Assembly: GCA_964552465.1 (NCBI GenBank)
Contig: CAZKGR010000018.1
Span: forward strand, 6,097 to 70,096
Source: an uncultured bacterium
Lineage (GTDB): Bacteria; Electryoneota; Electryoneia; Electryoneales; Electryoneaceae
Direction: 5' to 3'
DNA length: 64,000 bases
Part shown: positions 45,703 to 64,000 of the stretch, piece after piece
Numbering within the stretch: position 1 is the stretch's first letter
How the letters are laid out: every line of letters starts with the position of its first letter
The notes under the pieces: generated by a model
The model's database searches: none
Told to the model about the DNA's origin: nothing
Seen by the model: only the letters and a program-made list of their open reading frames with translations
Translations under genes and position numbers: made by a program

Positions 45703-48102
45703 ATGAGGTCTTCGATTCTCTTTGTTAGCATTTTGGTCGTCTTCGTTTTGCTGACAGCTATTCCTGTACAGGCACAGATCAACAACGCCGACTTTGAAAA
45801 CTGGACGGGTGATAATCCAGATAGTTGGACGATCGTTGAAACTGGCAACAATGAGGTCCGCGAGGACGCGTTCGCGTACAGCGGATCAGCTTCTGCTGAG
45901 TTGGTGTGCCCGTCATATTCACGTCCGCGATTGGTCCAGTATATCAATGTTGAGGCGAACGAGGCGGTAACGGCCAATTTGTTCGTGTATGACAACGAAG
46001 CATCATACACACGCTTGTATCTAAAAGTGTATGACAATGACGGATTGCTGCTTCTTCAAGATTATGACCAGTCTGCAAACTCTGGAAGCTGGCAGGCGTT
46101 AAACGTTGATCTTGTAACTCCCGCAAGTTCCGCGGAAATCAAATTTGAAGTCATCTATTTCTATGACACAGGCACCCCAGGAACGCAGACGAACTACATC
46201 GACTTTGCAGAAATCACGATTAGCGTTCCGACATTTGCCAACATCGAAAACCCTGGTTTGGAAGATTGGACTGGTGGCGTACCTGACAGCTGGACGGTGA
46301 TCGAACCCCTTAACAGCGATGTTCAGCAGGAAACTGGCACTGTCTACGAGGGTTCGTATTCTGCTTCCGTTACCTCGACAGCCTATGTACGTCCACGAAT
46401 GGTACAATTCCTGGGTGTGTATCCAGGTGACACGGTTACCGGACGTGTACAGATTCTTGATAACGATCCTTCTTTGCCGCGCCTGTATCTGAAAGCTTAC
46501 GACTACGATGGTACACTGATTCAGCAGAGTTTTGCATCTGCGACCAACAATGCTGCATGGCAGAATGTTGAGACAACGTTGGTAACACCATCAACAACGG
46601 CTTATGTCAAATTTGAAATCATCCAATTCTACAACACTACGTCAGGTGGTACACAAACCATCTATGTGGATGCTGCCGAGTACGAAGTAGACACATACAC
46701 ATTCGATGTCAGTACTGCCAACCAGTGGTACTTCATAGGTCCTCCAGTGGACATAACTGACCAGGGGGATAGAAACGCAGACCAGCTGTTCAGCGATGAC
46801 CTCGGCGGAGCGAGTACATCCTCCACATGGGTCATGAGCCGTTGGAACAACACGACTCAAGCGTATGAGCGCTTTGGTAATGGTGATGGCGATCCGCTCA
46901 CGGAACCGCCAGATATTGAACCGGGTATTGGATACTGGTTTGTTCAGGATGTGGAACCTGGAGTTTCCGATCCCTGGCTGGACATCACCAGTGCCCAGAC
47001 ATCAACTGGTGCTCCTTCTTCAGACGTTACCCAAGACATCATTGGGCAGACTGGAGGCGAGAACGGTGTCACCATGTTGGCAAACCCGTTCTACGGTGAT
47101 TTCACTGTCTCAGCGTCGGTTCTGACCGCAAGTGGTTCTCCCTCTGACTGGGGGCAGGACGGAATAAACTCAAACATTTACACGTGGGATGGGTCACAGT
47201 ATCTCATCCAGCTTGCTGAATCTGCCACACTTGGCATGTGGGACGGATTCTGGGTTGTCAAAACGACCACGGGTGATGGTGACATTACATTTACCTACGA
47301 TAGCGGTGACCACGGTCCAGTCATTGATGACTACTTCGTTGAAACCGGTTGGGGATTGCAGCTCTGCGTTGAGTCTCTGGATGGTACATATCTTGATACC
47401 TACAACGAGCTCGGAGTCCGTGATCGTTCGTTAGATGGCTACGATAGCTACGATGCCTTCGAAATGACGCCACCGAGTTCCAGATATGTCAGCCTTGCGT
47501 TTACCCATGAAAACTGGGATGAAGGACGCCGGTTTGCACATGACTATCGTGACAAAGAATTTGATCGGGATAGCTGGAACTTTGAGATAAAAGCCCGTCG
47601 TCTGCCGAACAGCTCATTCAGACTCTATTGGCCTGCGTTGCAAGGAGTCCCAGGAAATATCGAGTTCGAACTGTACCGTTACAATCAACAGAGTATTGTT
47701 CGAGTTGGACTATTGAGTGAGCTCGATGACTACGTCTTCACGGTCGGTGATGAGGATGTTGAGGTCGTTAGATTCCGCATCATTGCCTTAGATCAAGACC
47801 TGGTAGCCAGCGTTGACGAACCTGGTGCTGAACTACCGGTTGAGTTCGGCATACATTCAGCCTATCCGAATCCGTTCAACGCGCAGATATCCATCAAAAT
47901 GGGACTGCCGGATGCGGGTAACGCTACAATGACGGTGTTTGACATTCTGGGTCGCGAGGTCGCCAGCTTACATAACGGACACTTGAACGCTGGTTCCCAT
48001 ACGTTCACGTGGGAAGCGAAAGATCACGCGTCAGGCATCTACTTCCTCCGCTTGTCGTCTGGTGAACAGGTTTCGCATCGCAAAGTGACTCTACTTCAGT
48101 AG
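45703..48102 (+). CDS. T9SS cargo with two tandem CBM4/9-like jelly-roll domains and CTD
   Basis: Signal peptide (VQA|QI); two ~150-aa repeats (N..FE.W.G..PD.W ... YID.AE); AYPNPFNA...SGIYFLRL...RKVTLLQ. Confidence 0.8.
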   Translation: MRSSILFVSILVVFVLLTAIPVQAQINNADFENWTGDNPDSWTIVETGNNEVREDAFAYSGSASAELVCPSYSRPRLVQYINVEANEAVTANLFVYDNEASYTRLYLKVYDNDGLLLLQDYDQSANSGSWQALNVDLVTPASSAEIKFEVIYFYDTGTPGTQTNYIDFAEITISVPTFANIENPGLEDWTGGVPDSWTVIEPLNSDVQQETGTVYEGSYSASVTSTAYVRPRMVQFLGVYPGDTVTGRVQILDNDPSLPRLYLKAYDYDGTLIQQSFASATNNAAWQNVETTLVTPSTTAYVKFEIIQFYNTTSGGTQTIYVDAAEYEVDTYTFDVSTANQWYFIGPPVDITDQGDRNADQLFSDDLGGASTSSTWVMSRWNNTTQAYERFGNGDGDPLTEPPDIEPGIGYWFVQDVEPGVSDPWLDITSAQTSTGAPSSDVTQDIIGQTGGENGVTMLANPFYGDFTVSASVLTASGSPSDWGQDGINSNIYTWDGSQYLIQLAESATLGMWDGFWVVKTTTGDGDITFTYDSGDHGPVIDDYFVETGWGLQLCVESLDGTYLDTYNELGVRDRSLDGYDSYDAFEMTPPSSRYVSLAFTHENWDEGRRFAHDYRDKEFDRDSWNFEIKARRLPNSSFRLYWPALQGVPGNIEFELYRYNQQSIVRVGLLSELDDYVFTVGDEDVEVVRFRIIALDQDLVASVDEPGAELPVEFGIHSAYPNPFNAQISIKMGLPDAGNATMTVFDILGREVASLHNGHLNAGSHTFTWEAKDHASGIYFLRLSSGEQVSHRKVTLLQ

Positions 48103-50009: not shown

Positions 50010-52253
50010 CTATCCATCCCCAGGTTGGCTTGCATTAAACCGAAGCTCAAGCCGGAAAGTCCGCCCAGGACGTATCGCCTGACCCCAATCCAGATGTTCC
50101 TGATATGCACTATCCAGCAGGTTTTCGATGCCCAGACGGAAGACAAGCATGTCATTGAGTTTCCATTGACCTTGAACGTCGACCACAGCGTAGGCAGGAG
50201 AATGGTTTTCGCCATTTATAATTGATGGATTGTCTCTTTCAAGCGACCCACGTAACCGGAGATTTCCACTAAACGTTAATCCTGTCCAGCGTAACATCAT
50301 ATGACCGCGCAATGGTGAGAGGTTCGGGAGGTTATCATCCTCATCCATTAATCTGCCATGCTGCAGGCTGGCTCCAGCAACTATCAGCCACCTCGAGTAA
50401 ATTGGCTGCAACAAGGATATTTCCATCCCTTGAAGGTAGGCGCGAGAAGCATTGATATACTGTTTCCAACCATTTGCGAATGGAACGGTCACATCAGATT
50501 CAGCAATCTGACCATAGATGTAGTCGGCAAACTGATTGTGGAAAATGGAAACATCAATTCGTGAAGCGTTTACACGAATACTATTTCGCCATTCCCACTG
50601 ATGGGACTGTTCACGCTGAATGTGAGGATTTCCAGAGTACAGGAATCCGTCCGAAGCCACATATAAGTAGTAGCCATATGCTTCTGTGGAATTTGGGGCC
50701 CGCATTGCATACGCATAGCTGAATCCAGTTTCGATCATGCTGGAAATTTGCCAATCCACTCCGAACGAACCACCCGTCAGTGGATCATTTCGCGTGTCCG
50801 GGGCTGACGGATCAGACAACCTAAGTTGCTGAATGCCTTGCTCGTCGTTAGCACTTGTGTTGACATAATCCTGCCGGAATGAACCATGAAACTTATATGG
50901 ACCACGCTGATGCTGCAGACTGAACCACGCACCTGCTGACGAGGTCTGTACATCTGGCCAGGTTACGAGATACATCTCGGCAGATCCATCGGGGTACATC
51001 GTCATATCTGCGAATTGCCGTGTTTGAAACGCTTCGAGTCTCGTCAGCACTTGCCAGCCAGAAGCAGGACGGTGACTGGATTCGATAGTGCCACCTGATG
51101 TTCTGGTCCAACCCGGCATATCCATATGCATGCTCATCAGCAATTCGGTCCGAGTTGCATCATCCATCCAATGATCCACACGGTTGTGATATAAAGAAGC
51201 ACTCAGTTTCTCTATCCAATGCGCAGGTTGCTGAGCGCTCCAACGAGCTGAACCAGCCCTGAAACGTGCATATCCAACGTCCATTGGTAGAGCAGCGTAT
51301 CCCATGTCCCAGGCATCATCCGTCTGAACCAGCAGATCGAGCTGTTGTCGTTGAGTTAATCCAACTCGAACTGTTCCATAAAGGTTGAGTTTCTCATGAC
51401 CGGAGAACGGTTGTGTCCCTTGAGGAGTGCGATAATTACCGGCTTGCTGGTAAGCTGCCCTGAGTCGGTAGGAAATGTGAGATGAAGAACTGCCCAAATA
51501 CGCACTGCCGCGGGTTGATGCGAGAGCGTCAGCGTAAGAAACCGAGGCTCCATAATCAAGTCGCGAGTTTTCAGACAGTGGCTGGGAAACATGATTAAGA
51601 TTGATACTACCCCCAACCATGGCGCCATCTCTGGTATCAACGGCACCCATGCGAAGGGTCGCCTCGCCTAAAGCATCCAGATCAACATAGCTGGTTGCAG
51701 GATCCATTCGATCTGTACAGGCCCCATGAACTCGCATTCCATCCACGAGCAATAGTATCTGACCACCATTCATTCCGCGAATAGAAGGCTCTTGACCAAA
51801 TGCGCCTCGCCGCATCAAGCTTATTCCTTCCACTGATTCAAGAGCTTGTTCAGTGGTGGATATGCCCGTTTGGTAGCGATTAAATCTGAAAGACTCCATG
51901 TTCACGGATTCTCCCAGTACCACAACCTTTTCCAGCTCAAGTCCTCGTATCTGCAAAGCAATTTCAATATCATCACGAAGCTGAGCAGAGTTCAGAGTTA
52001 GTGGCTTGTACCCAAGCAGCGAAAAAGTGACTTGATTCGATGCAGCAGGAAATCTAATCCAGAATTTTCCATCAGAATCAGAGACTGTCCCCCTCGCGCA
52101 TCCGTCAATCATCAGACCGACATGCGCGAGGGGTTCGCCAGTATCTGCATCTACTACTCTTCCACTAACGTGGAACTCGTTTGCGATTAGTGCAGGCGAG
52201 TAGAGTAACAGAAACACTGAAACCAATAGAATATTTCGGATGTTTAGTGGCAC
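50010..52253 (-). CDS. TonB-dependent copper receptor (OprC/NosA-like) with N-terminal carboxypeptidase-regulatory-like domain
   Basis: RRGAFG.EP.IRG, DGMRV.GACTDRMDP.TSY (CxxxM), Met-rich LLMSMHMDMPG, ENLLD..Y.EH, PGR.F.L.L. Confidence 0.85.
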   Translation of the reverse strand: MPLNIRNILLVSVFLLLYSPALIANEFHVSGRVVDADTGEPLAHVGLMIDGCARGTVSDSDGKFWIRFPAASNQVTFSLLGYKPLTLNSAQLRDDIEIALQIRGLELEKVVVLGESVNMESFRFNRYQTGISTTEQALESVEGISLMRRGAFGQEPSIRGMNGGQILLLVDGMRVHGACTDRMDPATSYVDLDALGEATLRMGAVDTRDGAMVGGSINLNHVSQPLSENSRLDYGASVSYADALASTRGSAYLGSSSSHISYRLRAAYQQAGNYRTPQGTQPFSGHEKLNLYGTVRVGLTQRQQLDLLVQTDDAWDMGYAALPMDVGYARFRAGSARWSAQQPAHWIEKLSASLYHNRVDHWMDDATRTELLMSMHMDMPGWTRTSGGTIESSHRPASGWQVLTRLEAFQTRQFADMTMYPDGSAEMYLVTWPDVQTSSAGAWFSLQHQRGPYKFHGSFRQDYVNTSANDEQGIQQLRLSDPSAPDTRNDPLTGGSFGVDWQISSMIETGFSYAYAMRAPNSTEAYGYYLYVASDGFLYSGNPHIQREQSHQWEWRNSIRVNASRIDVSIFHNQFADYIYGQIAESDVTVPFANGWKQYINASRAYLQGMEISLLQPIYSRWLIVAGASLQHGRLMDEDDNLPNLSPLRGHMMLRWTGLTFSGNLRLRGSLERDNPSIINGENHSPAYAVVDVQGQWKLNDMLVFRLGIENLLDSAYQEHLDWGQAIRPGRTFRLELRFNASQPGDG

Positions 52254-52267
52254 AGATTATTCTCAGG

Positions 52268-52516
52268 TTAAAACTCGAATGCGTAAACGATCTGCCCCAA
52301 TTCTACTTCTGAGGCGTCGAAAAAGGTGAAAGTGATTTCCCAGTCACCAGTCATACTTAATCCAACGACTCCCTGATATCGGCCATTACCCACACCAACA
52401 GGTGCCACATTCCCTTCAGAACCGTGTCCCATGGATGGCATCAGGGTCTCGATTTCGGTGGTCAAACCGTCTACGTTCGGAAAGCTCATCATGGATTCTT
52501 TGGCGCCGAAAAGCAA
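52268..52516 (-). pseudogene. C-terminal YtkA/FixH-like domain without signal peptide, probable gene remnant
   Basis: KESMMSFP...MPSMGHGS..N..PV..GNG.Y.G.V.LSMTGDW. An in-frame TAA sits right before the TTG; only ~20 nt from the nosY stop. Confidence 0.55.
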
Positions 52517-52537
52517 TTATCTCGGAATCAATCTTGT

Positions 52538-53362
52538 CTACACATCCTGCTTCCTGAACAGAATGATCGAGGCGAGGATTGGAAGCACAATCCAGGCCAC
52601 CAATGACGCATATCCGATCAGGGTTGCAGTGGTCTCTGATCCGGTCATCTTGATCAATGTCGCGCCTGCCGGTCCGAAGAGGTGCGGCCCGCCGACAGCC
52701 AGAAGTGAGAGAACTCTTGTCAAATCTATCGGATTGAGCAGAAGCCCGACCAGCAGGATGATCTTTAACGCGGACGGTGTGAAATAAAGAGTACTGCCCA
52801 ACATCAGGGTGCCGTATAGCACTTCGAAAAACAACCACACTCCTAACGCAATCCCAAAAGCCACCTGACGTCTGGATGACAGCAACGCGATTAATACAGA
52901 TAACGCAGCAAAAACCACACTCAGCAACGTTGAATGAAGCACGACTTCCAGGTAACGAAGCGCGCCATCAGTTCCCACGCTAATCGCGGTTATCGCACCC
53001 GGTAATCCAAAGCCCAGAATGGACGCGGCGACAATTGTCATAACCAACCCGAGCAATTTTCCCAATAAAACCTGATCGCGGGATATTGGTTGAACGACAA
53101 GAAACTCCAAGTATTGTCGATGTGCGAGAAAGCTGAAAACTCCCACTATCAACGCAAATAACGGCAGCATGAAGCCCGACAGATTTACCAGACTGGCGGC
53201 GGTGCGAATAAAATCCTGTATTCCCACATACCCTGAGGTGACCATTCCCAGATAGGCGATGAGCAGGGTCAACACTGTAAATACTATCGCAAAGGTCAAC
53301 ACCCAGCGGTTGCGAACGTTGATCAGGAATTCCTGACGAGCAATGAGGAGTAGCCCATTCAT
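52538..53362 (-). CDS. nosY: ABC permease NosY
   Basis: IARQEF....RNRW, QPISR..VLLGK..G, LNP.D..R, six TMs; nos context. Confidence 0.88.
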   Translation of the reverse strand: MNGLLLIARQEFLINVRNRWVLTFAIVFTVLTLLIAYLGMVTSGYVGIQDFIRTAASLVNLSGFMLPLFALIVGVFSFLAHRQYLEFLVVQPISRDQVLLGKLLGLVMTIVAASILGFGLPGAITAISVGTDGALRYLEVVLHSTLLSVVFAALSVLIALLSSRRQVAFGIALGVWLFFEVLYGTLMLGSTLYFTPSALKIILLVGLLLNPIDLTRVLSLLAVGGPHLFGPAGATLIKMTGSETTATLIGYASLVAWIVLPILASIILFRKQDV

Positions 53363-54108
53363 AGTTGCCCTTCCTCATCAGTGTGTGCTCCGGCTACACG
53401 TATCATACCATAACTAAATCCAGTTTCATCCACTATTGGAAATCCAGCGCCAGGTAGCGTCAACAGCAGCCTGATTTCAACCATCTCGTCTGCATCGGGA
53501 AGCGTTAAGGCAGCCATGTTCGAGTAACCGCGAACCGACAGCACTTTACCAGCGAGTTCAGGTTCGTATGCGAGGCGCAGCAGCAGCAAATTCCCTTTCT
53601 CCGCTTCGATCAGATCCGGTTGCATGCCGACAGGGGACAGGGAGGCTTCAACGATCAGATCAGGATTTCCTCGCAGCGTCTGAAACCCTATCCAATCGGT
53701 GACGACCTCATCGTCGTATGCTGAAAACGAGTCTGCCGCATCGGTCGATGAAAAGCAAACAACCTGTCCATTCATCACGGTCGGAACGTGGTTCGTCAAA
53801 ACCATCACCACTGAGTCCGCCGAAACAAGCGCGGACGTGTTGTAGTCCGCCAAGTAGATGTCTGAGTCACGTATGACGAAAGACTTGGGAAGAGATTCAA
53901 TGTGTCGAAGCATGCACTTGGGCGAGTCGTAGGTGAGGAACTCACCCCCGACCACCATCCCACTCGCATGATTAACCTGATCGATGTTCATGTTGCAGGT
54001 ATGGCAAACATCAATTCCCGAATAAATTTGAATTCTCGGTTCTGATGCGCAACCAGCCAGCAGGATGGCGAACACGACCACGAGAAATGACTGTTTCATG
54101 GAATTCAT
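53359..54108 (-). CDS. nosL: NosL copper chaperone lipoprotein with ~110-aa C-terminal extension
   Basis: Lipobox LAGC; D.CHTCNMNI, YDSPKCM, VPTVMNG..V.F. Confidence 0.82.
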   Translation of the reverse strand: MNSMKQSFLVVVFAILLAGCASEPRIQIYSGIDVCHTCNMNIDQVNHASGMVVGGEFLTYDSPKCMLRHIESLPKSFVIRDSDIYLADYNTSALVSADSVVMVLTNHVPTVMNGQVVCFSSTDAADSFSAYDDEVVTDWIGFQTLRGNPDLIVEASLSPVGMQPDLIEAEKGNLLLLRLAYEPELAGKVLSVRGYSNMAALTLPDADEMVEIRLLLTLPGAGFPIVDETGFSYGMIRVAGAHTDEEGQL

Positions 54109-55052
54109 GTGCGCTCCAGGTCTTCCTTTGATGTGAATTGGTCAGACAACAGTGAATCCCAATCAGGATTTTCGGTACGGAACTCCTCAATCTGTCCGCC
54201 TGCTGCTTCAATGGCTTTGATCACATGCAGACGCTGCTCAGGATTAGCACGGAAGGACATTCGGTAGCCGTTCTGGTCTGTTAATCTCGCGCCAGCTTCA
54301 CAGGCTGCAGAGATTAATTTCTCTGATGTCTGCTGAAGTACGAGGTGGACCTCCGTTTCATTCTGGACGGCTTCGTAAAAGTCAGGCACAGATTCAACCG
54401 TAGCAATTTTACCGTCGTTCACAATAGCTACTCGATCCGCCAACTGCAGAGCATCTCTAATGATATGCGATGTAAAAAGTATGGTTGCGCCCCGACCTTT
54501 AAGCTGTCCAATCAACTTTCGAAACTGTTCAGTTCCAAGTGGATCAAGGTTCAATGTTGGTTCATCCAAAACGTAAAACGGAACTTCAGGCAGGAAGCAA
54601 ATAGACAAGGCTAATCGTTGAATCATCCCACCCGAATACTCCTGTACACGACGATCAGCGGCATCCTGCAATGAAAAGAAGGTGATCATTTCTTCGACAC
54701 GATCAGCCTTACAATCCCGCAGTTCCGCAGAGAGGAACAGCAATTCACGAGCGGTCAGCATTCCGGGAAAATCAATGCGCTGTGGTAAATATGAAAGAAC
54801 GTGTTTGATCTTATCGACTTGTTTCCGAACGTTCATTCCAGCGACTTCGATCGTCCCGCTAGTCGGGTGGATTGCACCCACAACTGCACGTATGATTGTC
54901 GATTTACCACCGCCATTTGGCCCGAGCAATGCAAGCGCCTCACCCTCAGACACATCCAGGTCGCTGGGTTTTACTGCATGGATCTTCCCAAATCGTTTTT
55001 CAAGCGACTTTATTCTCAGATATGGCATATCCTGGTCTGTTCCCGTCTTCAT
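54105..55052 (-). CDS. nosF: ABC ATP-binding protein NosF
   Basis: GPNGGGKS, YLPQR, YSGGM.QRL, LDEPT..LDP.G, TSH; between nosD and nosL. Confidence 0.88.
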   Translation of the reverse strand: MKTGTDQDMPYLRIKSLEKRFGKIHAVKPSDLDVSEGEALALLGPNGGGKSTIIRAVVGAIHPTSGTIEVAGMNVRKQVDKIKHVLSYLPQRIDFPGMLTARELLFLSAELRDCKADRVEEMITFFSLQDAADRRVQEYSGGMIQRLALSICFLPEVPFYVLDEPTLNLDPLGTEQFRKLIGQLKGRGATILFTSHIIRDALQLADRVAIVNDGKIATVESVPDFYEAVQNETEVHLVLQQTSEKLISAACEAGARLTDQNGYRMSFRANPEQRLHVIKAIEAAGGQIEEFRTENPDWDSLLSDQFTSKEDLERT

Positions 55053-56473
55053 TTGCGCCGTCTCCCAAGCCTGCCCACACTCATCAATCCTCCAAACAAG
55101 CCAAAGCTCACCACAACGTACAGGACGGCAGCCGAATGATTCTGATCACCAAGTTCATCTAACTCTTCCCACGGGACAGCCGAATTCTCTATCGGGCGAA
55201 TGACCGGTTGTTCGTCAACAGCTTCACCAAACTTCAGAATTGGCAAGGTCCTTTCCGCTATCTCGAGAATTGCCGCAGCAGGGCTCAACAGATAGTAACG
55301 TACTTCAGGTACGCTGCCCTCCATCACCTGGAATACGTTCTGAATATCAAATGGAATTTCCCCGATTCCATCACTATCCAAATCATAACCGTCGTAGCTA
55401 CTCCAGTGATTGCCACCATCTGAATCTGACCAGTTTGTTTCGCGGTCGGTCACATCAACAAGTAGTTCACTCAAATTGTTGATGAAATTATTGGATGCGA
55501 ACACATTCCCATCCGACCCACCATTCATCTGGATGGCCAAGTCGTTATCAACCACATCATTACCGACGATCATATTCTGACTGCTATTGTTGACGAAGAT
55601 TCCTCGGCTGTTATCATAGATCAGATTATCATACGCGTAGGTCTTATCCATGGACTGATACAAGATTCCGTATGCCCGGAATCCACGACAATGAGCAAAG
55701 ATGTTACGTTCAAAGAGGATATTGTGCGAGTACATTAGTGCCGCGCCCGCGACGTTCAGAATGAAAGTGTTGTCCTCGAACGTGTTGTAATTGGAGTACA
55801 TGTAGTGAAGGCCATAGCGAACATGATGAATCTTATTGTGTTGAATGTCTGTTGAGTCTGCGAACGAGAAATAGATCCCGTCTCTCACATTTAGGATTTC
55901 ATTGTTCCGAACAAGGTTGTTCTTGGAGTACCAGAGGTGAATTCCATTCCCACGATCCGATTCAATCAAGTCTAATCGACCTTCGATACGGTTGTTTTCG
56001 ATTATTGTACTATTGCCCTGCTTTACATAAATACCGTGAAGCGGCCTGGTGACCTGGCAATTTCTGATCACGACAGAATCAGCTTCAACGAGTATAGCAG
56101 CATGATCTTTGGTCAGCCGTTCTCCCGCTTCAGATATGTGCAAACCATCCAAAACAGCACCCGGGGCAGTCAGGTGGACAACATGACCCACGTAACCACC
56201 CCGGATGTGTGGTAGATCAAAACCAGTTATTACTACAGGTACATCAACAACGATCTGCTCCAAGTATTCACCTGGAGCCAGCCACACAGTGTCACCTGAT
56301 GCAGCTGTACGGATAGCAGAGGAGATGCTTTCGCCGGATTGAACGGAAATTCGCGCGGCTGTTCCATAGGTTGGAACCATCAGAACTGACAACGTGATGG
56401 CTACAGCCAATTGCATAACTCTCAGCCGGTGGAAAGCGCAAACTCCATTCATGAATAGCGATTTCCTCTCCAT
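55049..56473 (-). CDS. nosD: Nitrous oxide reductase maturation protein NosD
   Basis: Right-handed beta-helix (CASH) repeats; RGNGIHLW, RDGIYFSF, VRYGLHYMYS, GGNHWS.Y.G.DLD.DG.G..P. Start uncertain. Confidence 0.92.
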   Translation of the reverse strand: MERKSLFMNGVCAFHRLRVMQLAVAITLSVLMVPTYGTAARISVQSGESISSAIRTAASGDTVWLAPGEYLEQIVVDVPVVITGFDLPHIRGGYVGHVVHLTAPGAVLDGLHISEAGERLTKDHAAILVEADSVVIRNCQVTRPLHGIYVKQGNSTIIENNRIEGRLDLIESDRGNGIHLWYSKNNLVRNNEILNVRDGIYFSFADSTDIQHNKIHHVRYGLHYMYSNYNTFEDNTFILNVAGAALMYSHNILFERNIFAHCRGFRAYGILYQSMDKTYAYDNLIYDNSRGIFVNNSSQNMIVGNDVVDNDLAIQMNGGSDGNVFASNNFINNLSELLVDVTDRETNWSDSDGGNHWSSYDGYDLDSDGIGEIPFDIQNVFQVMEGSVPEVRYYLLSPAAAILEIAERTLPILKFGEAVDEQPVIRPIENSAVPWEELDELGDQNHSAAVLYVVVSFGLFGGLMSVGRLGRRRK

Positions 56474-56480
56474 TACAGGC

Positions 56481-56978
56481 TCATCCAGCGATTCTGCGTA
56501 ATTCTGAATCGACCATGGAATTGGTTCGGACGCCAGCAACACCTGTTTTTACCAGCAGCTGCCAAACTTCTTCCATATCGAGGAAGAGCTGTTTGTCGAA
56601 GTTGCCAGCAGCGCGACGTGTCTTGCAGTCTTCATAAAGTGTCAACGCGGCTGTCAGCTGAACGACGGTATCATCCCACTCCTCGTGAAGTGTCGGGCTG
56701 AAACGGGTACCGTACTGTTCAAATCCTGCTGTTATGTAAGCAGCGATAGGATTGATCACGTTCAGCACTTGCAGGATCTCGATGTCTTTGTTATGAACCT
56801 TGGCTTCCCAATCGGTGACCGAAGACACGTTCATCGGCGCGGGAATTTCAAGCGCAGCAGGTGTCTCGTAAGTAAGAGTAGGAAGCTGTGATGCCGATTC
56901 CTGCGGGGCATCAGCTTGCTGAGTACCGCAGCCCACAAGCAGGCCGAATATCAACAGAAGCAATGTTAATCGAAGCAT
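56481..56978 (-). CDS. Hypothetical helical lipoprotein in the nos operon
   Basis: GGGAGG RBS before ATG 56978; lipobox LVGC; all-helical sequence; no recognisable family. Confidence 0.75.
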   Translation of the reverse strand: MLRLTLLLLIFGLLVGCGTQQADAPQESASQLPTLTYETPAALEIPAPMNVSSVTDWEAKVHNKDIEILQVLNVINPIAAYITAGFEQYGTRFSPTLHEEWDDTVVQLTAALTLYEDCKTRRAAGNFDKQLFLDMEEVWQLLVKTGVAGVRTNSMVDSELRRIAG

Positions 56979-57012
56979 GTAACCTCCCTGTCTGGGGGTA
57001 ATTGCGTAAACT

Positions 57013-57636
57013 TCACGCAACAGATTTTTTTTGCCAGGAGAAGTACAAGGCGGCCAGAAGGCTAAGTCCAAAAACGAGAAAGAAGTATGTACCCAACGCC
57101 GGGTATGACCATACTTCAAACTGGCCGACCAGTTTGTAACCAAACACAGGTGGAGTAAACGGATCCACGGTCACTGAAGCCCTAGGGTCCAGATTATGCC
57201 CGTACTGGTATAGCTTGTACCAGAAGCTCCAGAGTGAGTAGATGGCGAAATAGAGCGCGATTACGATAACATCTACGATAGAACCGACTGTGCCGATTGC
57301 CGCCGCACGCAACGTCATCACCGCAATCAACCCAATTACCAATGGAATCCACTTAAGCTCAGTAAATTCTTCCGCTTTCAGCTCCGCCATCCCGATGTAG
57401 TGATTGAGGACGTTGATCTCGGTAAGATCGTTGCCATCATCACCACCAATCAGGTTGTGGCTGTAAATGTACATGTCCAGACCTTCAGGGTACTGCTGGG
57501 CCCAGAAATTCATGTGCCACAAGGGAACAAAAAAAGTCGGGATCAGAGACAGCGCCGCCAATAACACGAGCAAACGGCTTCGTCCAGACAGCGGCTTGCT
57601 GACGAATGTTGTGATGGCCGCAAATAGTGTGGACAT
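57013..57636 (-). CDS. nosB: Clade II nos membrane protein (NosB-like)
   Basis: P.W.M...A.QYPEGL.M.I, .EIN.LNHYIGM, LY.YGHNLDP.A...V..F.PP..G..; four TMs; directly after nosZ. Confidence 0.8.
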   Translation of the reverse strand: MSTLFAAITTFVSKPLSGRSRLLVLLAALSLIPTFFVPLWHMNFWAQQYPEGLDMYIYSHNLIGGDDGNDLTEINVLNHYIGMAELKAEEFTELKWIPLVIGLIAVMTLRAAAIGTVGSIVDVIVIALYFAIYSLWSFWYKLYQYGHNLDPRASVTVDPFTPPVFGYKLVGQFEVWSYPALGTYFFLVFGLSLLAALYFSWQKKSVA

Positions 57637-57699
57637 GATCACACCTGAGTTGATCTGCCCGGCGAGTTTGGCTAGCTCGCCGGGCAAGAATGAAACAAC

Positions 57700-59601
57700 C
57701 TACTTGACCAGCATGTATCCCTGCATCTCCTGGTGCAAAGCACTGCAGAAGTTGGTGCAGTAGAAGGCGTACACACCACTCTTGTCAGCCTTGAATGTCA
57801 CCGACTTCGTCTCGCCCGGATCAATGACAAGATTGATGTCGTAGTTGTCGATCGCGAAGCCGTGAAGCTCGTCACGAGTCTGCTCGATGTTCGTCACATG
57901 AACCGTGACAGTGTCACCCTTACGCACACGAATTACATCTGGCGCGAAGAAAGAACGGACGGCCATCATCCAGATTTCTACATTGCGACCGCTACGTTCG
58001 ACTCTAGCTTCTTCGGCAGTCCAAATTGCATTCGGATTCTTATGCCAGTATGGATCGTCCTTCTTGTAGACCTCGACCGGGTCCAGCTTGTCGGCCTTGA
58101 TCATCACCGCATAATGCGGTTCCGGTTCGGTGAACGCATCATACAGAAGACTCATCTTTTCGCCGGATATATCAATCAACTGTGCGGATTCCGGAATCGA
58201 CGGACCCACGCTCAGGTGACGACCCTTGGACAACTTGTTGAGAGCGACGAGATAGTTGCCATCCGGCGATCTCGAGTCGCCTTCAGCCGAGACGAGGTGA
58301 CCGATGTTGTAGGCAACCGGGAGCTTATCTAACACGTACTGACTCATGTCCGCGCCTTCCTCGTAGGGCGGAAGCTGCCACTTACAGACGGCGCTTTCGA
58401 CGAACAACGAGGTGTAGGCGTTTCCACGATCATCAAACTGGGTATGGAGTGGGCCGAGACCGACCGGGATTTCCGCTTCACGTACCGACGCGTAGTTCAG
58501 GACTGGAATACCGTCGATGGTTTCCTCGAAATCGCTGGCTGCGATGGCCGCGGAGATCTTCTCCATGTTGTAGACGGTGGTTGTCGGCGAGAGCTTGCCG
58601 GAACCGATGATCCACTGTCCAGACGGGCTGACATCCACGCCGTGCGGGGACTTGGCCAGCGGAATGAAGTAAGCAATACCCTGCGCGGTGAGCGGATCAA
58701 GGACCGGTGCACCGTTAACCATGCGAGACTTACCATCGGCAACAGCCTGCTCGGCAGCACGCCAGTCGACCATCAGGATGTAATCTTTATCGCGCTGGGA
58801 CGCCGTGACTTCAAGCTTTCCGCCTTCGATGAATTCACGCTCGGCATTGTAACATGTCCAGAACATCCAGCCATCACTCATGCCCTTACCGGCGTCGCCG
58901 AGGTCATAGTTGAACGGTGGGCAGAGGATTTCCCAACCGAGGCTCATCTCGCCAGTGGTCGGATGCAACTTGATACCAGCGACTACGCCCTTGTACTTGT
59001 CAGCATATTCATCAACATCGGCGTAAGTACCTTCGGGGAAGGGTACTGACATACGTGTCGCCATGGTGATGTATTCGCTGTTCGGTGTGCAGAACGAGCT
59101 ACCATGGTTTGCCGAGATGTTCGGAATGCTGAGAATCTGCTTGGTTTTGAAATCCTTAAGGTCGATACGTGCGACACGGCCGTTGGCGTTGTCGTTGATA
59201 AACAGCCAGCGACCATCGTACTCACCGTCGGTTTCTGAGAATCCCGGATGGTGTGAATCGCCCCAGGTATAACCCCCGAGCATTTCTTTGCTTTCGTTGT
59301 CGAATCCGTATCCAGTTCCCGGGTAGGGAGTGAATACGGGGATGGTGCAGATGTGACGCATCGAGGGAACGCCCGAAACGAAAATCTGCCCGCTGTGTCC
59401 ACCTGAGTAGAAAAGGTAGTATTCGTCAAGATCGCCAGGTGCAACGTAGGTAGCCAATGCTGCGGATGTTACATCCGAACCACCGCCAGCTTGCCCACGT
59501 CCACCACGTGATGGCTGCTGAGCACATCCGATCATCCCTGCTGCGATCATCATGATCAGCAGAAACGCGATCCTTCGAGTCCACAAGACCCTGTCTTTCA
59601 T
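57700..59601 (-). CDS. nosZ: Sec-dependent (clade II) nitrous-oxide reductase
   Basis: SGGHSGQ, WGDSHHP, NHG, KSPHGVDV, GLGPLHTQFD, YNIGH, EPH, CuA motif FYCTNFCSALH.EM. Sec/lipoprotein signal (MIGC), no Tat motif, no fused cytochrome c. Confidence 0.97.
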   Translation of the reverse strand: MKDRVLWTRRIAFLLIMMIAAGMIGCAQQPSRGGRGQAGGGSDVTSAALATYVAPGDLDEYYLFYSGGHSGQIFVSGVPSMRHICTIPVFTPYPGTGYGFDNESKEMLGGYTWGDSHHPGFSETDGEYDGRWLFINDNANGRVARIDLKDFKTKQILSIPNISANHGSSFCTPNSEYITMATRMSVPFPEGTYADVDEYADKYKGVVAGIKLHPTTGEMSLGWEILCPPFNYDLGDAGKGMSDGWMFWTCYNAEREFIEGGKLEVTASQRDKDYILMVDWRAAEQAVADGKSRMVNGAPVLDPLTAQGIAYFIPLAKSPHGVDVSPSGQWIIGSGKLSPTTTVYNMEKISAAIAASDFEETIDGIPVLNYASVREAEIPVGLGPLHTQFDDRGNAYTSLFVESAVCKWQLPPYEEGADMSQYVLDKLPVAYNIGHLVSAEGDSRSPDGNYLVALNKLSKGRHLSVGPSIPESAQLIDISGEKMSLLYDAFTEPEPHYAVMIKADKLDPVEVYKKDDPYWHKNPNAIWTAEEARVERSGRNVEIWMMAVRSFFAPDVIRVRKGDTVTVHVTNIEQTRDELHGFAIDNYDINLVIDPGETKSVTFKADKSGVYAFYCTNFCSALHQEMQGYMLVK

Positions 59602-59674
59602 CCTTCCGCCTCCCAATGTTTACTATCTTCTGCGTTCACTGTTTGTCGAAAAATGGTACAGACTCATCTATAGA

Positions 59675-60892
59675 CTACTCACTACTACTTATCTGGTCCT
59701 GATTACTCCTGTTCCTCACGATGTCGTATGCCTTGTTGATTTTATCAACAGCTTCCCACTTTTCTTCGTCCGTCAGCGGGATCTGACTATCGAGAATAAT
59801 CTTCATCGTGCCTGTTGGATCAAAGAGGAACTCTTCCACTGTCTTGTTGAACCGAGTTCGGACATCATCTGGTGCCCAGGATAGATCGGGTCCTTTATTG
59901 GTGGGAGATTCGATGTCGAACGCTTCGACACTATGGCAAATGAAACAGGAATGCTCGAAGAAGAAAGCACCGTCACCGTCACGCATCTTGCGCTCACGTT
60001 CGAGTTCTTCAGCAGTCATTTCGTCAAAGAGCTTAACACCCGGCAGGTATGCCCGAGGCAGATCCGCGTTTTCCTTCCAGCTCATCACAAGCATCGACAA
60101 GGCTATGGCGTCCCTGGTCTGGAAATTCATGTCCGGCATGATCGTTCCCGGGACAATGGTTTCTGGCGATTTGAAGTGTTTGATGTGCCAGTTGAACACC
60201 GTCAGCTGCTCAGAGACGAGATTCGAAAAGTCGTATCCTTCAGGGTGTTTATCACCTTCGTGACTCAGGTCAGGACCAAGAATTCCGCCATCTTCGTTAA
60301 CAATGTGGCAGACCTTACAACCCTTCTGATGGAGCAGGTTTTTGCCACGATTGATGAAATCTAAACCAGGCGTACTACGTTCGTATCGATGGCAGTAATT
60401 GCACTGGATCTCATGCATGGGAACGGGATCCCGTGCATCATACTCAGATCCTATGATTGAGCTGAGTAGTGGCTCTTCCCAATGGGTGATGAATCCGTGT
60501 GCCTCATGAGCAGTCAACGCATATCCTTGACCACCGTGACAAATCGTGCAACCATACTCTTCCAGTGGGTGATCAGCGAACAACTCCAAGTCTGGATGTG
60601 TTGCCCAAGGCTGCTCCATGTCTTCAAGACCCGGCCAGGTAATACCCTGGTGACACGTGATGCATCGATCGACGCGGTCCAGTTCATCAACCCAGATCTG
60701 CTGAATACCATAGGATATGGAGGTAGCATCAATGTCGCCGAAGTTCTCAGCGAGGATGAAACGAAACTCTTGTTGGTAATACTTCCACTCCGGAACACCT
60801 TCGCGCACATACACAGCGCCAATGGCCACAACCGTGATCGCTGCTGCAATCAGAAGCAGGAAGAGTTCTTTCTTGGGGATTGGTTTCCTCAT
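59675..60892 (-). CDS. Membrane-anchored pentaheme cytochrome c (c subunit of a Rieske/cytb complex)
   Basis: N-terminal TM; CITCH, CTICH, CNYCH, CKVCH, CFICH. Confidence 0.9.
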   Translation of the reverse strand: MRKPIPKKELFLLLIAAAITVVAIGAVYVREGVPEWKYYQQEFRFILAENFGDIDATSISYGIQQIWVDELDRVDRCITCHQGITWPGLEDMEQPWATHPDLELFADHPLEEYGCTICHGGQGYALTAHEAHGFITHWEEPLLSSIIGSEYDARDPVPMHEIQCNYCHRYERSTPGLDFINRGKNLLHQKGCKVCHIVNEDGGILGPDLSHEGDKHPEGYDFSNLVSEQLTVFNWHIKHFKSPETIVPGTIMPDMNFQTRDAIALSMLVMSWKENADLPRAYLPGVKLFDEMTAEELERERKMRDGDGAFFFEHSCFICHSVEAFDIESPTNKGPDLSWAPDDVRTRFNKTVEEFLFDPTGTMKIILDSQIPLTDEEKWEAVDKINKAYDIVRNRSNQDQISSSE

Positions 60893-60899
60893 CTCTGCC

Positions 60900-62396
60900 T
60901 CAGTAAGTAATTGGATGATGTGGCCATGCCTGCCACGGCCAGTAGAAGTCCCAGTTCGGACCCCGGAGCGCTGTGCCGATGTAGGTCAGAAGCAGGAAGC
61001 CAACAATAAACGCGCAAAAAGTAGCAATAGAAGCGTATCGCTTTGATTTCGTGATCTTGGCAACGACGAAAAACAAAACAGCAAAGAGAACAAGCAGAAG
61101 CGTCGCCGGATTTACGAAATCGAAAAAGAACTGACTTTCTATACCGCTGAACAACTCACGGGTTGGAAATAACAGACTCAGTGTGACGCAAAACGCGGTT
61201 ATAATAATCCCGACTGCGAATCCAAGCATACCGAATGTGCGGCCTTTGCTATCCGTGAACCACAACCCCAAGCCCTTCTGTTCACGATCAACAAACGGAA
61301 TCATGGCCAATCCGAGTACCGCAATCCCGGGAATCAACACACCACCCATCAGCGCTGAATACCCGACCAGCTCCTGTAAACCGAGGAAATACCACGGTGC
61401 CTTCGCAGGGTTGGGTGTCACTTCCGGATTGGCTGCTGCTTCAAGGGGAGCTTGGAAAACGATGGCAAGGATTATTGAAACTGCCAACGTTGTCAGGGAA
61501 ACAAGCAGAATTCGAACTGTCAGGAATGGTGACGACGGGACTGAATTATCGTCGTTCAGCGTCGTAGGATCGCTCACCGCAATACTCGTCCCCTTCGCAA
61601 TCCCGAGAATACTGTAGGTCTTGGACTTCTTCGGGATAGCGGCTGGACGGTTTGCAGCATCCCGGCGCACCTGGTCAATAACTGCCAGACCGCCATCCTT
61701 ACGGATACGCCACATATGCCAGGCGCATAAAGCAAACAGGATAACTGGCAAGAAGAAAACGTGAAGCACGTAGAAACGAATGAGTGTGGGCTGCCCAATC
61801 TCAGTACCGCCGAGCAAGAACTGGCGGATCTGTTCTCCTATCATTGGGACAGCAGCGGCGATGTTCGTCCCGACAGTAATCGCCCAGTAGGCGAGTTGAT
61901 CCCAGGGAAGAAGATAGCCGGTGAAGCTGAGAAGAAGGGTCAGCACAAGCATACCTACACCCATCACCCAGTTCCAATGGCGAGCTGATCGGACCATGTC
62001 TCCTGCCTTGTATGCTCCGGTCAGGAAAACCCGGAACATGTGCACGAAGACGACCGCTACCATAAGGTGAGCGGTCACACGATGTAATCGCCTGAGCAAC
62101 CACCCAAAACTGATCGCGAAATCTATGTCCTTTATGCTCCAATATGCCCGTTCGACAGAAGGCACATAGAAGAACATGAGGATCACACCGGTAACCGTGA
62201 GGATGATGAACAGATTCAACGCAATCGTTCCGAGGTACATCGAGCTCTTAAAGGATAAAGATCGCAACGAAGTGCGGTGCGAAAACCAGTGCAGCAGAAA
62301 GCTGGATACAACTGCAGATCCGGCTTCACGGCTGGATTCTGGTTTCCAAGGCCATGTCAGCCTGTCGAGAAATGAGGATTTTGGCAGGAGGCTCAT
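60900..62396 (-). CDS. Cytochrome b (b6 + subunit IV fused, extra C-terminal TMs)
   Basis: TGVILMFFY.P, GWLLRRLHR..AH.M...V..HMFRVF, SFTGYLLPWDQ.AYWA, RFY.LH, NPAKAPWYFLGLQE. Confidence 0.93.
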   Translation of the reverse strand: MSLLPKSSFLDRLTWPWKPESSREAGSAVVSSFLLHWFSHRTSLRSLSFKSSMYLGTIALNLFIILTVTGVILMFFYVPSVERAYWSIKDIDFAISFGWLLRRLHRVTAHLMVAVVFVHMFRVFLTGAYKAGDMVRSARHWNWVMGVGMLVLTLLLSFTGYLLPWDQLAYWAITVGTNIAAAVPMIGEQIRQFLLGGTEIGQPTLIRFYVLHVFFLPVILFALCAWHMWRIRKDGGLAVIDQVRRDAANRPAAIPKKSKTYSILGIAKGTSIAVSDPTTLNDDNSVPSSPFLTVRILLVSLTTLAVSIILAIVFQAPLEAAANPEVTPNPAKAPWYFLGLQELVGYSALMGGVLIPGIAVLGLAMIPFVDREQKGLGLWFTDSKGRTFGMLGFAVGIIITAFCVTLSLLFPTRELFSGIESQFFFDFVNPATLLLVLFAVLFFVVAKITKSKRYASIATFCAFIVGFLLLTYIGTALRGPNWDFYWPWQAWPHHPITY

Positions 62397-62914
62397 CAGA
62401 CCACCAACCTGAAGTCGCGATCGACTTCCGAAAATAGATCAACGATTAACTGACCATCATCAGGTGCCAGGTTCAAACGATGCCATTTCAATGGTCGCGG
62501 CGCCGGGCCAGAGTAATTCGTCCCCTCAGCATGGAATTTTGAACCATGACAAGGGCAATGGAACTCACCTGGCGCTGAGAACTCTTTGCCACGAACGGTG
62601 ATCTGCTTCTCTTGACTGTAAGGTGAAAATTTCACCGTGCATCCAAGGTGTGTGCAAACACCGGAAATCGCAAAGAATCCATTTCCTTGCTTGAAGATGT
62701 ACACTTTGTGTTCATCCAGGTAGGAAACTCCCGATTGAAAATGGTCTGGAGAGCCAATTTTGAACCGCTTTGGCGGTTCATAAAGGACATTTGGTATCAG
62801 GGATCTCAAAACTACCCACAATCCGCTGAATACGCTCAGACCAACAAATGCGCCAGATAATCGACCCATAAATGATCGACGGGTCTGCGGCGATGCTTTC
62901 GCTTCTTCGTTCAC
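62396..62914 (-). CDS. Rieske 2Fe-2S subunit
   Basis: Tat anchor TRRSFM; CTHLGC and CPCHGS boxes; GPAPRPL. Confidence 0.95.
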   Translation of the reverse strand: MNEEAKASPQTRRSFMGRLSGAFVGLSVFSGLWVVLRSLIPNVLYEPPKRFKIGSPDHFQSGVSYLDEHKVYIFKQGNGFFAISGVCTHLGCTVKFSPYSQEKQITVRGKEFSAPGEFHCPCHGSKFHAEGTNYSGPAPRPLKWHRLNLAPDDGQLIVDLFSEVDRDFRLVV

Positions 62915-63999
62915 TCAACTATCTCCACGAAATTGAACCGTTCCATGGTCATCGCTTCAGTGGGGCAGCGCTGAGCACATAACCCACACCGAATACATGC
63001 TGTGTCATCTTTCAACAACACAGTCAACGTGCTTTCAGCCGGATCAATGCCACTCGCATGCAATGCTGCCTGCCTGTGGTCCTCCGGCATATCCACTTCA
63101 CTTATCGGAACAAAGTGCAGGCATTTCTCAGGACAGACATCTGCACATCGTCCACATAAAACGCAAATCTCGGGGTCGTAAATGGTGTCTATATGACATG
63201 ATAGACAACGTTCGGCCTGTTTCCTTGCAGTACTTTCATCAAGCACAGTCTCAACTTCGGTAATGCCCGTGCGTCGCCCGGCACTAATTGTATCTGGATT
63301 CTTTCGCGTCAGCTTTTCATAAGCTGCGGGCATTTTGTAATCATCAATCGGGACTTTTTCGATCGTCACCTGCATGGAAGTTGAGGTGTCAGTCCCACTC
63401 AGGAATGCGTCAATGGATTTTGCGGCCTTTTTTCCGTTAGCAACGGCTTCGATCAGGATACGTGGACCAAATGCTGCATCGCCGCCTGCAAATACACCTG
63501 GGGCACTTGTTTCAAGCGTTTCAGGATTGATCTTTATTGTTCCGCCGCGGCCTATCTCAATGCCGTCAGAGTCTGAAATGAAATCGAGATCGGGTTGTTG
63601 ACCAATCGCCAGAATCACTGAATCAACATCCAGCTGCATTGTCCTCTGCTCGTCATACTGTGGTGAGAATCGACCCTCTTCGTCAAACACTCGGGTGACA
63701 CCGACAAGCTTCAGACCCTCAACTCGATCCTTGCCGATAATCTCTTTAGGCCCCCATGAGGGGTGGAGTTGAATACCCTCCAAATGAGCTTCATGCAACT
63801 CTTCTTTACCCTGTATTGTTTGGGCGGAAGGCAATTCAGCCAGTGATTCGAGCGAAATGACAAACACTTCGGCGGCGCCAGACCGCATTGCCCCACGTGC
63901 AGCATCCATGGCAGGTTGACCAGCAACAGCCTCTGCCGTTTTCTCAATCTCCTCCATCGGGGAGTAAAAGTCGCGAACCGCTGAACGTGCAGCATCCAT
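62911..63999 (-). CDS. FAD/NAD(P)-dependent oxidoreductase (GltD/NfnB-like) with C-terminal 2x[4Fe-4S]; 5'-truncated by the window edge
   Basis: DAAR.A.R.GA.EV, D.VILAIGQ, GVFAGGD, IEAVANGKKAA.SID, A..QAERCLSC, CVLCGRCADVCP, CIRCGLCAQRCP. Confidence 0.9.
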   Translation of the reverse strand: MDAARSAVRDFYSPMEEIEKTAEAVAGQPAMDAARGAMRSGAAEVFVISLESLAELPSAQTIQGKEELHEAHLEGIQLHPSWGPKEIIGKDRVEGLKLVGVTRVFDEEGRFSPQYDEQRTMQLDVDSVILAIGQQPDLDFISDSDGIEIGRGGTIKINPETLETSAPGVFAGGDAAFGPRILIEAVANGKKAAKSIDAFLSGTDTSTSMQVTIEKVPIDDYKMPAAYEKLTRKNPDTISAGRRTGITEVETVLDESTARKQAERCLSCHIDTIYDPEICVLCGRCADVCPEKCLHFVPISEVDMPEDHRQAALHASGIDPAESTLTVLLKDDTACIRCGLCAQRCPTEAMTMERFNFVEIVE

Positions 64000-64000
64000 G

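Follow-up and report, generated by a model that had tools for sequence, protein, structure and literature searches.

We analyzed a 64-kb window (64,000 nucleotides (nt) of contig CAZKGR010000018.1, from an uncultured bacterium that GTDB places in the Electryoneaceae), one end of which carries genes for a flavoprotein, a Rieske/cytochrome b complex, and a multiheme cytochrome c directly ahead of nosZ, the gene for nitrous oxide (N2O) reductase. Positions 50,010-64,000 of the minus strand form an unbroken co-directional gene series, and all six of its core genes lie where an earlier sequence-only reading of the window had placed them, with the same overlaps and gaps and with profile identities that agree. 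The series begins with the C-terminal 362 codons of a flavoprotein gene that is cut by the window end (63999-62911); these match Pyr_redox_2, two 4Fe-4S domains, and NfnB/GltD-like NCBIfam models. It continues with genes for a Rieske [2Fe-2S] subunit of 172 amino acids (aa) (62914-62396; PF00355), a cytochrome b of 498 aa (62396-60900; Cytochrome_B, a weak Cytochrom_B_C match, and ExtP/ExtQ-like matches in NCBIfam), and a pentaheme cytochrome c of 405 aa (60892-59675; five CXXCH motifs, with weak Cytochrom_C and FixO matches). These are followed by a Sec-type (clade II) nosZ (59601-57700, with a longer alternative start at 59616; TIGR04246, nos_propeller, and Cupredoxin_1) and by a nosB-like gene for an integral membrane protein of 224 aa (57687-57013), recognized by its hydrophobic segments and its position after nosZ.

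The flavoprotein and Rieske genes overlap by 4 nt (GTGA), the Rieske and cytochrome b genes overlap by 1 nt (TGATG), and a gap of 7 nt separates the cytochrome b gene from the cytochrome c gene. The spacer between the cytochrome c gene and nosZ (59602-59674, minus strand) is 73 nt long when measured to the ATG at 59601, where gene callers place the nosZ start, and it contains a GGGAGG Shine-Dalgarno ribosome-binding site. No terminator-like hairpin that might separate the module from nosZ was found in this 73-nt gap. A promoter scan with the sigma-70 consensus, which has Bacteroidota-type promoters outside its scope, gave one weak match before nosZ (9/12), and the total of promoter-like matches in the region around the spacer was not above that of shuffled sequence; a promoter internal to the operon may lie ahead of nosZ. 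Across the 64-kb window, no open reading frame (ORF) with an iron-sulfur (Fe-S) motif or a CXXCH motif was found beyond the module, and the window therefore lacks nosR, nosG/H, and nosC, in agreement with the sequence-only reading.

The part of the flavoprotein gene that lies beyond the window was recovered from a public contig of 96 kb (L001), which is identical to the window, base for base, over the ~1.9 kb where the aligned stretches overlap. The full gene (L001:8067-10004) encodes a protein of 645 aa that comprises an N-terminal Fer4_20 domain, Rossmann domains for flavin adenine dinucleotide (FAD) and pyridine nucleotide, and a C-terminal 2x[4Fe-4S] ferredoxin domain. No hydrophobic segment, signal peptide, or transmembrane segment was found in the flavoprotein, and it is predicted to be a cytoplasmic, NfnB/GltD-like protein. 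Its sequence matches in the PDB are NfnABC/NfnB, GltD, DPD, and FwdF, the best entries being 9n5u, 9bov, 8oh5, 5jca, 4ylf, and 2vdc (E 1e-86 to 1e-42). The NfnB/NfnABC/GltD module is the unit of flavin-based bifurcating enzymes that contains FAD and two [Fe-S] clusters and binds nicotinamide adenine dinucleotide (phosphate) (NAD(P)H). With NfnB (the large NfnI subunit), Bfu-type NfnABC, and GltD, the window flavoprotein shares the GxGxxG and GxGxxA motifs and the N-terminal Fe-S domain. It differs from them in its additional C-terminal 2x[4Fe-4S] domain, in a 28-residue insertion in the nucleotide domain, and in its presumed partner, which is a membrane Rieske/cytochrome b complex rather than NfnA or GltB.

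A further difference lies in the nucleotide site itself, where the NADPH-binding Tyr-Arg-Arg is replaced by Ser-Leu-Glu: the window protein reads V-I-S-L-E-S, whereas NfnB-like enzymes and the Kuenenia protein read V-Y-R-R. All motif variants listed for 81 family sequences contain Ser-Leu-Glu, the Qrc-linked variants included, and the insertion just upstream of it, 28 residues long in the window protein, measures mostly 26-35 residues in relatives. An acidic residue at the end of beta-2 is a textbook mark of NAD(H) preference, and Ser-Leu-Glu suggests that the flavoprotein would use NAD(H) and not NADP(H). The description of this protein as an NAD(P)/FAD Fe-S subunit in the sequence-only reading thus needs adjustment: the NAD(P) oxidoreductase-type homology stands, but NAD(P) should probably read NAD(H), and nucleotide binding is putative.

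The flavoprotein is conserved about as strongly as cytochrome b (median identity 54% versus 53%), which fits an obligate subunit. AlphaFold2, run with an 18-sequence alignment, returned a poor single-chain model (mean predicted local distance difference test (pLDDT) score of 55). We also noted one protein of 826 aa (P0024), encoded on a single 3.2-kb ENA contig, in which a flavoprotein and a Rieske protein form one polypeptide joined by ...NFVELPRVKEDSMEAKPRRTF.... As proof of physical association, this fusion was down-weighted as the possible product of a frameshift on a lone contig; since the two genes overlap by 4 nt, as seen in the window, one sequencing error could create it.

The Rieske protein of the window has a twin-arginine translocation (Tat)-like RRSF motif, a single transmembrane anchor, and the cluster boxes CTHLGC and CPCHGSKF. 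A Tat-like motif occurs in 78 of 78 Rieske proteins of the family; wherever the box II motif was found (76 relatives), its Ser is kept, with Tyr or Phe at the next tuning position. The best PDB matches are 9rk4 (E 2.6e-21) and 9rk3 (E 2.5e-19), with b6f Rieske proteins weaker, at E 1e-12 at best; from their molecule names and box II motifs, we identify 9rk4 and 9rk3 as the two structures of Kuenenia Rieske proteins in PMC12954380, an assignment we regard as probable. In cytochrome b, four b6-like helices at the N terminus and five helices resembling subunit IV are fused into one chain (9 hydrophobic segments, 4 + 5); the protein aligns to b6 structures at E ~1e-41. Its b-heme histidines are H105, H119, H212, and H227, and an additional conserved histidine, His36, is kept in 97% of 71 nos-linked cytochromes b. 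The heme cN cysteine, Cys35 in b6, is absent, its place being taken by Tyr54 in the window protein and by Trp in 72% of the family, so that the N-side chain is unlike the standard b6f Qn site.

The pentaheme cytochrome c has an N-terminal membrane anchor and five CXXCH motifs that are invariant across 20 homologues. Hemes 1-3 belong to a c7-like part in which His98, His107, and His131 are invariant, and hemes 4-5 to class-I/CcoO-like parts in which Met251 and Met362 are; the former are probably bis-His ligated, and the latter probably His/Met ligated and of higher potential. No significant sequence relative of this protein was found in the PDB (best E 0.035), and the AlphaFold2 single-chain model built from 20 sequences is poor (mean pLDDT 40). 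NosZ scores 851.6 bits against the Sec-dependent model TIGR04246, which has a cutoff of 625, and only 510 against the TAT-type model. The protein is 633-638 aa long, depending on its start, lacks a heme c domain or heme motif, and carries the CuA motif CTNFCSALHQEM. Its N terminus (59601-59515, minus strand) reads MKDRVLWTRRIAFLLIMMIAAGMIGCAQQ and looks like the signal of a lipoprotein, in which MIGC would be the lipobox-like motif. NosZ may be tethered to the membrane beside the anchored pentaheme cytochrome. The nosB-like gene begins 12 nt past nosZ and is kept directly after nosZ in 54 related loci. Its product matches no family in Pfam or NCBIfam, neither of which has a NosB profile, and its position and membrane character agree with the description of nosB in PMC11096178.

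Related loci were collected by a scan of one genome per GTDB species, which gave 555 flavoprotein relatives; the best 80 loci were kept, the other 475 were left out, and the 80 were annotated with the window proteins. Flavoprotein relatives in general number thousands, the closest 120 of them at 64-81% identity, and the nearest genome is a metagenome-assembled genome of an uncultured bacterium (DRR093004_bin.59) whose flavoprotein is 82% identical. The order flavoprotein-Rieske-cytochrome b-pentaheme-nosZ-nosB-nosD-nosF-nosY is colinear in 79 of the 80 loci. Among the 63 loci that are informative for nosZ, having at least 1.5 kb of sequence past the pentaheme gene, nosZ directly follows that gene in 60. 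On these counts we rejected chance adjacency of the module and nosZ as very unlikely. They bear out the link to clade II nosZ drawn in the sequence-only reading and show that the linkage is not unique to this assembly, which makes the case for a dedicated module stronger. The loci span at least seven phylum-level labels (Acidobacteriota, in several classes, Gemmatimonadota, Calditrichota, KSB1, Zixibacteria, Bacteroidota/Chlorobiota, and Myxococcota), and the window's gene order is carried by an isolate, Anaeromyxobacter sp. PSR-1. In three more distant loci (L055:10001-20122, L075:1152-12657, and L076:870-11055), the module occurs without nosZ and adjoins a QrcABCD/Psr-like complex made up of a pentaheme cytochrome, a molybdopterin-like protein, a 4Fe-4S protein, and an NrfD-like membrane protein.

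Homologous complexes are found in anammox bacteria. R/b-3 (kuste4569-4574) and R/b-2 (kustd1480-1485) of Kuenenia stuttgartiensis are Rieske/cytochrome b (R/b) complexes with an NAD(P) oxidoreductase subunit; their NAD(P)-linked role is a proposal of Kartal et al. (2013), and structures and models of them come from Hauser et al. (2025) (PMC12954380). The Kuenenia Rieske proteins have been measured at +303 and +335 mV, and AlphaFold3 models propose His43 of Kuste4571 as a ligand of an extra, inter-monomer heme b (PMC12954380). As a reference for BLASTP of the window proteins, we used a Kuenenia sp. locus (L087), retrieved with the 9rk4 sequence, that has the kuste4569-4574 arrangement of Rieske protein, 581-aa flavoprotein, cytochrome b, subunit IV, hexaheme cytochrome c, and HAO-like octaheme protein. 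The window flavoprotein aligns with its R/b-3 counterpart (Kuste4570) at 33% identity across 629 aa (E 7e-98), and the two stay colinear to the C-terminal ferredoxin domain and through it. The Rieske proteins align at 36% (E 3e-31), the cytochromes b at 45% (E 7e-57), the subunit-IV part and Kuenenia subunit IV at 36-46%, and the N-terminal 150 aa of the pentaheme protein and the hexaheme protein at 26% (E 3e-12).

The likeness extends to details of each subunit. Common to both systems are, in the flavoprotein, six cysteines of the N-terminal part together with those of the C-terminal ferredoxin domain, a b6-like cytochrome b with a five-helix subunit-IV part, the Ser plus Tyr/Phe pattern of Rieske box II, and the transmembrane anchor and first two heme motifs of the multiheme cytochrome c, which in both stands in for cytochrome f or c1. 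His36 of the window cytochrome b aligns with His43 and is a putative heme ligand. Both clusters also end with the gene for a nitrogen-oxide reductase, the HAO-like octaheme in Kuenenia and nosZ here. The differences are equally definite. In Kuenenia the Rieske gene precedes the flavoprotein gene, and both precede the cytochrome b gene, whereas here the flavoprotein gene comes first and the Rieske gene second; cytochrome b and subunit IV are separate there and fused in the window. The heme cN cysteine of Kuenenia (WCMGG) gives way to Tyr or Trp in the nos-linked family, and its NADPH-type Tyr-Arg-Arg (VYRR) gives way to Ser-Leu-Glu (ISLES) in the window flavoprotein. In the nos-linked flavoprotein, two insertions are specific to the family (they measure 28 and 24 residues in the protein of the window), and the cluster boxes of the window Rieske protein are set apart by a 15-residue insert. 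The Kuenenia cytochromes carry six or eight hemes, whereas the window protein carries five, with two class-I/CcoO-like domains, and its C-terminal half is unrelated to the hexaheme protein. Finally, the terminal enzyme here is the copper-containing N2O reductase. Judged from these sequences, the label "anammox-type" given in the sequence-only reading is fair for homology and architecture: the subunit-by-subunit homology and His36 speak for it, but the heme cN cysteine and the NADPH-type Arg-Arg are absent, and the nos-linked complexes are best described as a distinct subfamily.

The gene arrangement is an already known type of clade II nos cluster, of which the window adds another instance. 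In the figure legends of He et al. 2024 (PMC11096178, Fig. 5) and of an ISME J paper of 2026 (PMC13122619, Fig. 2), genes labeled Fe-S, Rieske (S/Rs), cy-b, cy-c, and nosB/tm have their own colors in the surroundings of clade II nosZ, and Anaeromyxobacter dehalogenans 2CP-1 is among the genomes of these published nos-cluster figures. As far as the figures and legends go, the window shares with this Anaeromyxobacter-type ("atypical") cluster a Sec-type nosZ followed directly by nosB (a nosB-like gene in the window), nosDFY(L), and, ahead of nosZ, genes for Fe-S, Rieske, cytochrome b, and cytochrome c proteins, as well as the absence of nosR and nosX from the cluster (in the window, no further Fe-S or flavin-type ORF). 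We find no essential difference between the two at that level, at which the published "Fe-S" gene is matched to the window flavoprotein by its label and not arrow by arrow. Such clusters are said to have been shown first by Sanford and colleagues, in PNAS in 2012.

What is useful, and in our view under-appreciated, is that the gene labeled "Fe-S" would encode an NfnB-like subunit common to the anammox complexes. In the openly available text and legends covered by our literature search, with subscription reviews (e.g., Hein and Simon 2019) outside it, the gene is labeled only, and no NfnB-like analysis of it or link to anammox was found. The module is likewise not described in Castelle 2013 (Zixibacteria RBG-1) or in the Nitrospina genome paper. 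A different system operates in Wolinella succinogenes, whose clade II N2O respiration is reported to involve cNosZ, NosB, NosGH, NosC1/C2, and a separately encoded Rieske/cytochrome bc complex (Qcr) (Hein, Witt and Simon 2017, as cited by other papers). On that account the two systems have in common a clade II, Sec-type NosZ with nosB, here a nosB-like gene. They differ in that the Rieske/cytochrome b genes here lie inside the nos operon; that the window is without nosG and nosH (NapGH-like) and nosC1/C2, having no poly-ferredoxin ORF or further CXXCH ORF; and that the window NosZ has no heme c domain, with a pentaheme cytochrome and a flavoprotein added.

On balance, we read the locus as probably that half of a clade II nos operon of the Anaeromyxobacter type which supplies NosZ with electrons, and in which a dedicated b6-type Rieske/cytochrome b quinol oxidase is joined by a flavoprotein. 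Quinol would be oxidized at the quinol oxidation (Qo) site, from which one electron would pass via the Rieske cluster and the pentaheme cytochrome c to periplasmic NosZ for the reduction of N2O to N2; the hemes of the pentaheme protein would be a plausible wire to the CuA site of a NosZ that itself has no heme domain. The flavoprotein would dock on the N-side of cytochrome b and link the low-potential b-heme chain to cytoplasmic pyridine nucleotide, probably via an extra heme b held by His36. The second electron could then travel from heme bP to heme bN, the His36-bound heme, the Fe-S chain, FAD, and finally NAD+, and N2O respiration would thereby yield both membrane potential and low-potential reductant from the quinone pool.

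Bifurcation of the second electron to NAD+, as in the Kartal/Hauser-type scheme, is a tentative proposal by analogy to which we give somewhat less than an even chance. We chose it because all components are homologous to complexes whose Rieske potentials (+303 and +335 mV) make such a scheme energetically plausible, because Rieske box II shows the same Ser plus Tyr/Phe pattern, because His36 is conserved and the b6f-type Qn/heme cN site is absent, and because N2O offers a large driving force. The stronger claim that the module is a true quinol-bifurcating enzyme, in which the N2O potential drives the second menaquinol electron onto NAD+ or another low-potential acceptor, is possible and, to us, doubtful. 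Which nucleotide serves and which way the electrons run are both inferred here, and the two options named in the sequence-only reading, bifurcation or direct channeling of NAD(P)H to NosZ, are conjecture drawn from analogy.

Several points weigh against the bifurcation scheme. Even for the anammox complexes, NAD(P)+ reduction is only a proposal (PMC12954380). The family-wide insertion lies inside the nucleotide-binding fold, and with Tyr-Arg-Arg replaced as well, nucleotide binding is putative. Many hosts carry labels of lineages that we take to be mostly heterotrophs with NADH to spare, which makes the benefit of quinol-derived NADH doubtful. The three Qrc/Psr-linked loci mean that the module is overwhelmingly, yet not exclusively, nos-linked and so not strictly N2O-specific; by their gene content, it would evidently be able to pair with other periplasmic redox systems.

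Among the alternatives, the one that fares best reverses the direction of flow through the flavoprotein. Electrons would enter from NADH and pass through FAD and the Fe-S chain to the N-side heme(s), from there reducing menaquinone at the quinone reduction (Qi) site, or would reach heme bH directly, and the quinol would be reoxidized at Qo towards NosZ. Such a built-in NADH:N2O chain would be comparable to the proposed FNR-b6f route of chloroplast cyclic flow. It accords with Ser-Leu-Glu in the place of the Tyr-Arg-Arg of NADPH enzymes, the acidic residue favoring NAD(H), and with the physiology of the hosts: NADH is the catabolic donor of heterotrophs, and many hosts carry labels of lineages that we take to be mostly organotrophs (Anaeromyxobacter, Gemmatimonadota, Acidobacteriota, and Bacteroidota). 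Topology and conserved linkage back this path and the bifurcation scheme equally. The Rieske potentials do not, since the values measured argue that the anammox homologues run the opposite way (PMC12954380), and the window family retains the high-potential Ser of box II, followed by Tyr or Phe. In addition, heme cN is absent and the Qi site is putative, and the energy yield would drop if Complex I were bypassed. We consider NADH input less likely than bifurcation, yet a serious rival to it.

Both of these schemes treat the flavoprotein as part of the complex. Were it instead a co-expressed soluble enzyme, the Rieske protein, cytochrome b, and pentaheme cytochrome would run an ordinary Q cycle to NosZ, and the flavoprotein might serve in redox balancing, in Fe-S/flavin-dependent maintenance or reactivation of the nos system, as a loose stand-in for NosR, or in sensing. 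The poor structure models, which give no contact evidence, and the possible frameshift behind the P0024 fusion leave room for this view, as do clusters without nosR and nosX, in which a NosR-like role is unfilled. It sits badly with the placement of the gene, which shares 4 nt with the Rieske gene in the window, lies directly upstream of the Rieske gene in related loci, and in Kuenenia has a homologue between the Rieske and cytochrome b genes. A soluble enzyme would also leave unexplained a degree of conservation that matches cytochrome b and a conserved N-side His36 that has no role in an ordinary Q cycle, and we regard this explanation as quite improbable. That the module is a general-purpose complex III, beside nosZ by chance, is hardly credible: three related loci do place it next to a Qrc/Psr-like complex, and the 64 to 96 kb of genome visible leave room for another bc complex elsewhere, but nosZ lies immediately downstream in nearly all informative loci across the phylum-level labels listed above, the order is colinear in all but one of the 80, and the junctions within the module are overlapping or short.

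Organisms with clade II NosZ are regarded as the main biological N2O sink, and to our knowledge, their electron supply is understood for Wolinella only. The operon type described here hard-wires a full Rieske/cytochrome b complex, along with a flavoprotein predicted to be cytoplasmic, to NosZ in at least 60 GTDB species, and no relative outside the anammox bacteria is closer to the NAD(P)-linked Kuenenia complexes than this nos-linked one. Anammox bacteria are not genetically manipulable, and the function of the Kuenenia complexes is therefore still hypothetical. Because cultured Anaeromyxobacter carries the module, bifurcation to pyridine nucleotide is testable there by ordinary knock-outs and membrane assays, and the answer would shift estimates of the growth yield and competitiveness of N2O reducers. 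If the bifurcation scheme holds, N2O would provide reducing power in addition to proton-motive force for a large share of those clade II N2O reducers of soils and sediments that do not denitrify, and the Rieske/cytochrome b complexes of anammox bacteria, otherwise intractable, would have a laboratory model in cultured Anaeromyxobacter. If the flavoprotein is instead a plain entry point for NADH or unrelated to the complex, the finding shrinks to the routine annotation of a known operon.

Downstream of nosB, the series continues on the minus strand with a gene for a putative lipoprotein of 165 aa (56978-56481; a gene call in L001), which lies between nosB and nosD. A profile search found no family match for this protein; homologues occupy the same position in 19 related loci, at 42-64% identity. 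Then follow nosD, nosF, nosL, and nosY (52538-56452), with functions in copper-centre maturation and as an ATP-binding cassette (ABC) transporter, which match TIGR04247 (nosD, 385 bits), ABC_tran, NosL, and ABC2_membrane_2. Directly after nosY come a small YtkA-like gene (52492-52268; PF13115) and a gene for a TonB-dependent receptor (52253-50010), whose best match, at 171 bits and below the cutoff, is the copper-receptor family TIGR01778. As an extension of the nos operon, these last two proteins could serve in copper acquisition and CuA chaperoning, in analogy to NosA/OprC.

At the other end, two genes for Rrf2-family regulators (IscR/NsrR/RirA-like) precede the flavoprotein gene (L001:6868-7299 and L001:7605-8063), the second of which stops 3 nt short of the flavoprotein start. 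Rrf2 genes also lie upstream in ~20 of the 80 related loci, and these regulators are candidate sensors of nitric oxide or redox state for the nos operon. Upstream of them, L001:1-6721 holds a xanthine-dehydrogenase-like cluster (FAD_binding_5, Fer2/Fer2_2, a molybdopterin subunit, YqeC, and two amidohydrolases) that appears unconnected with the nos genes. Within the window, a secreted repeat protein of 816 aa is encoded on the plus strand at 45652-48102, and its C-terminal tail, judged by eye, resembles a sorting domain of the type IX secretion system (T9SS), which points to a host from the FCB group as probable; a multiheme protein with a T9SS tail (TIGR04183) is found in L055, one of the three loci in which the module occurs without nosZ.

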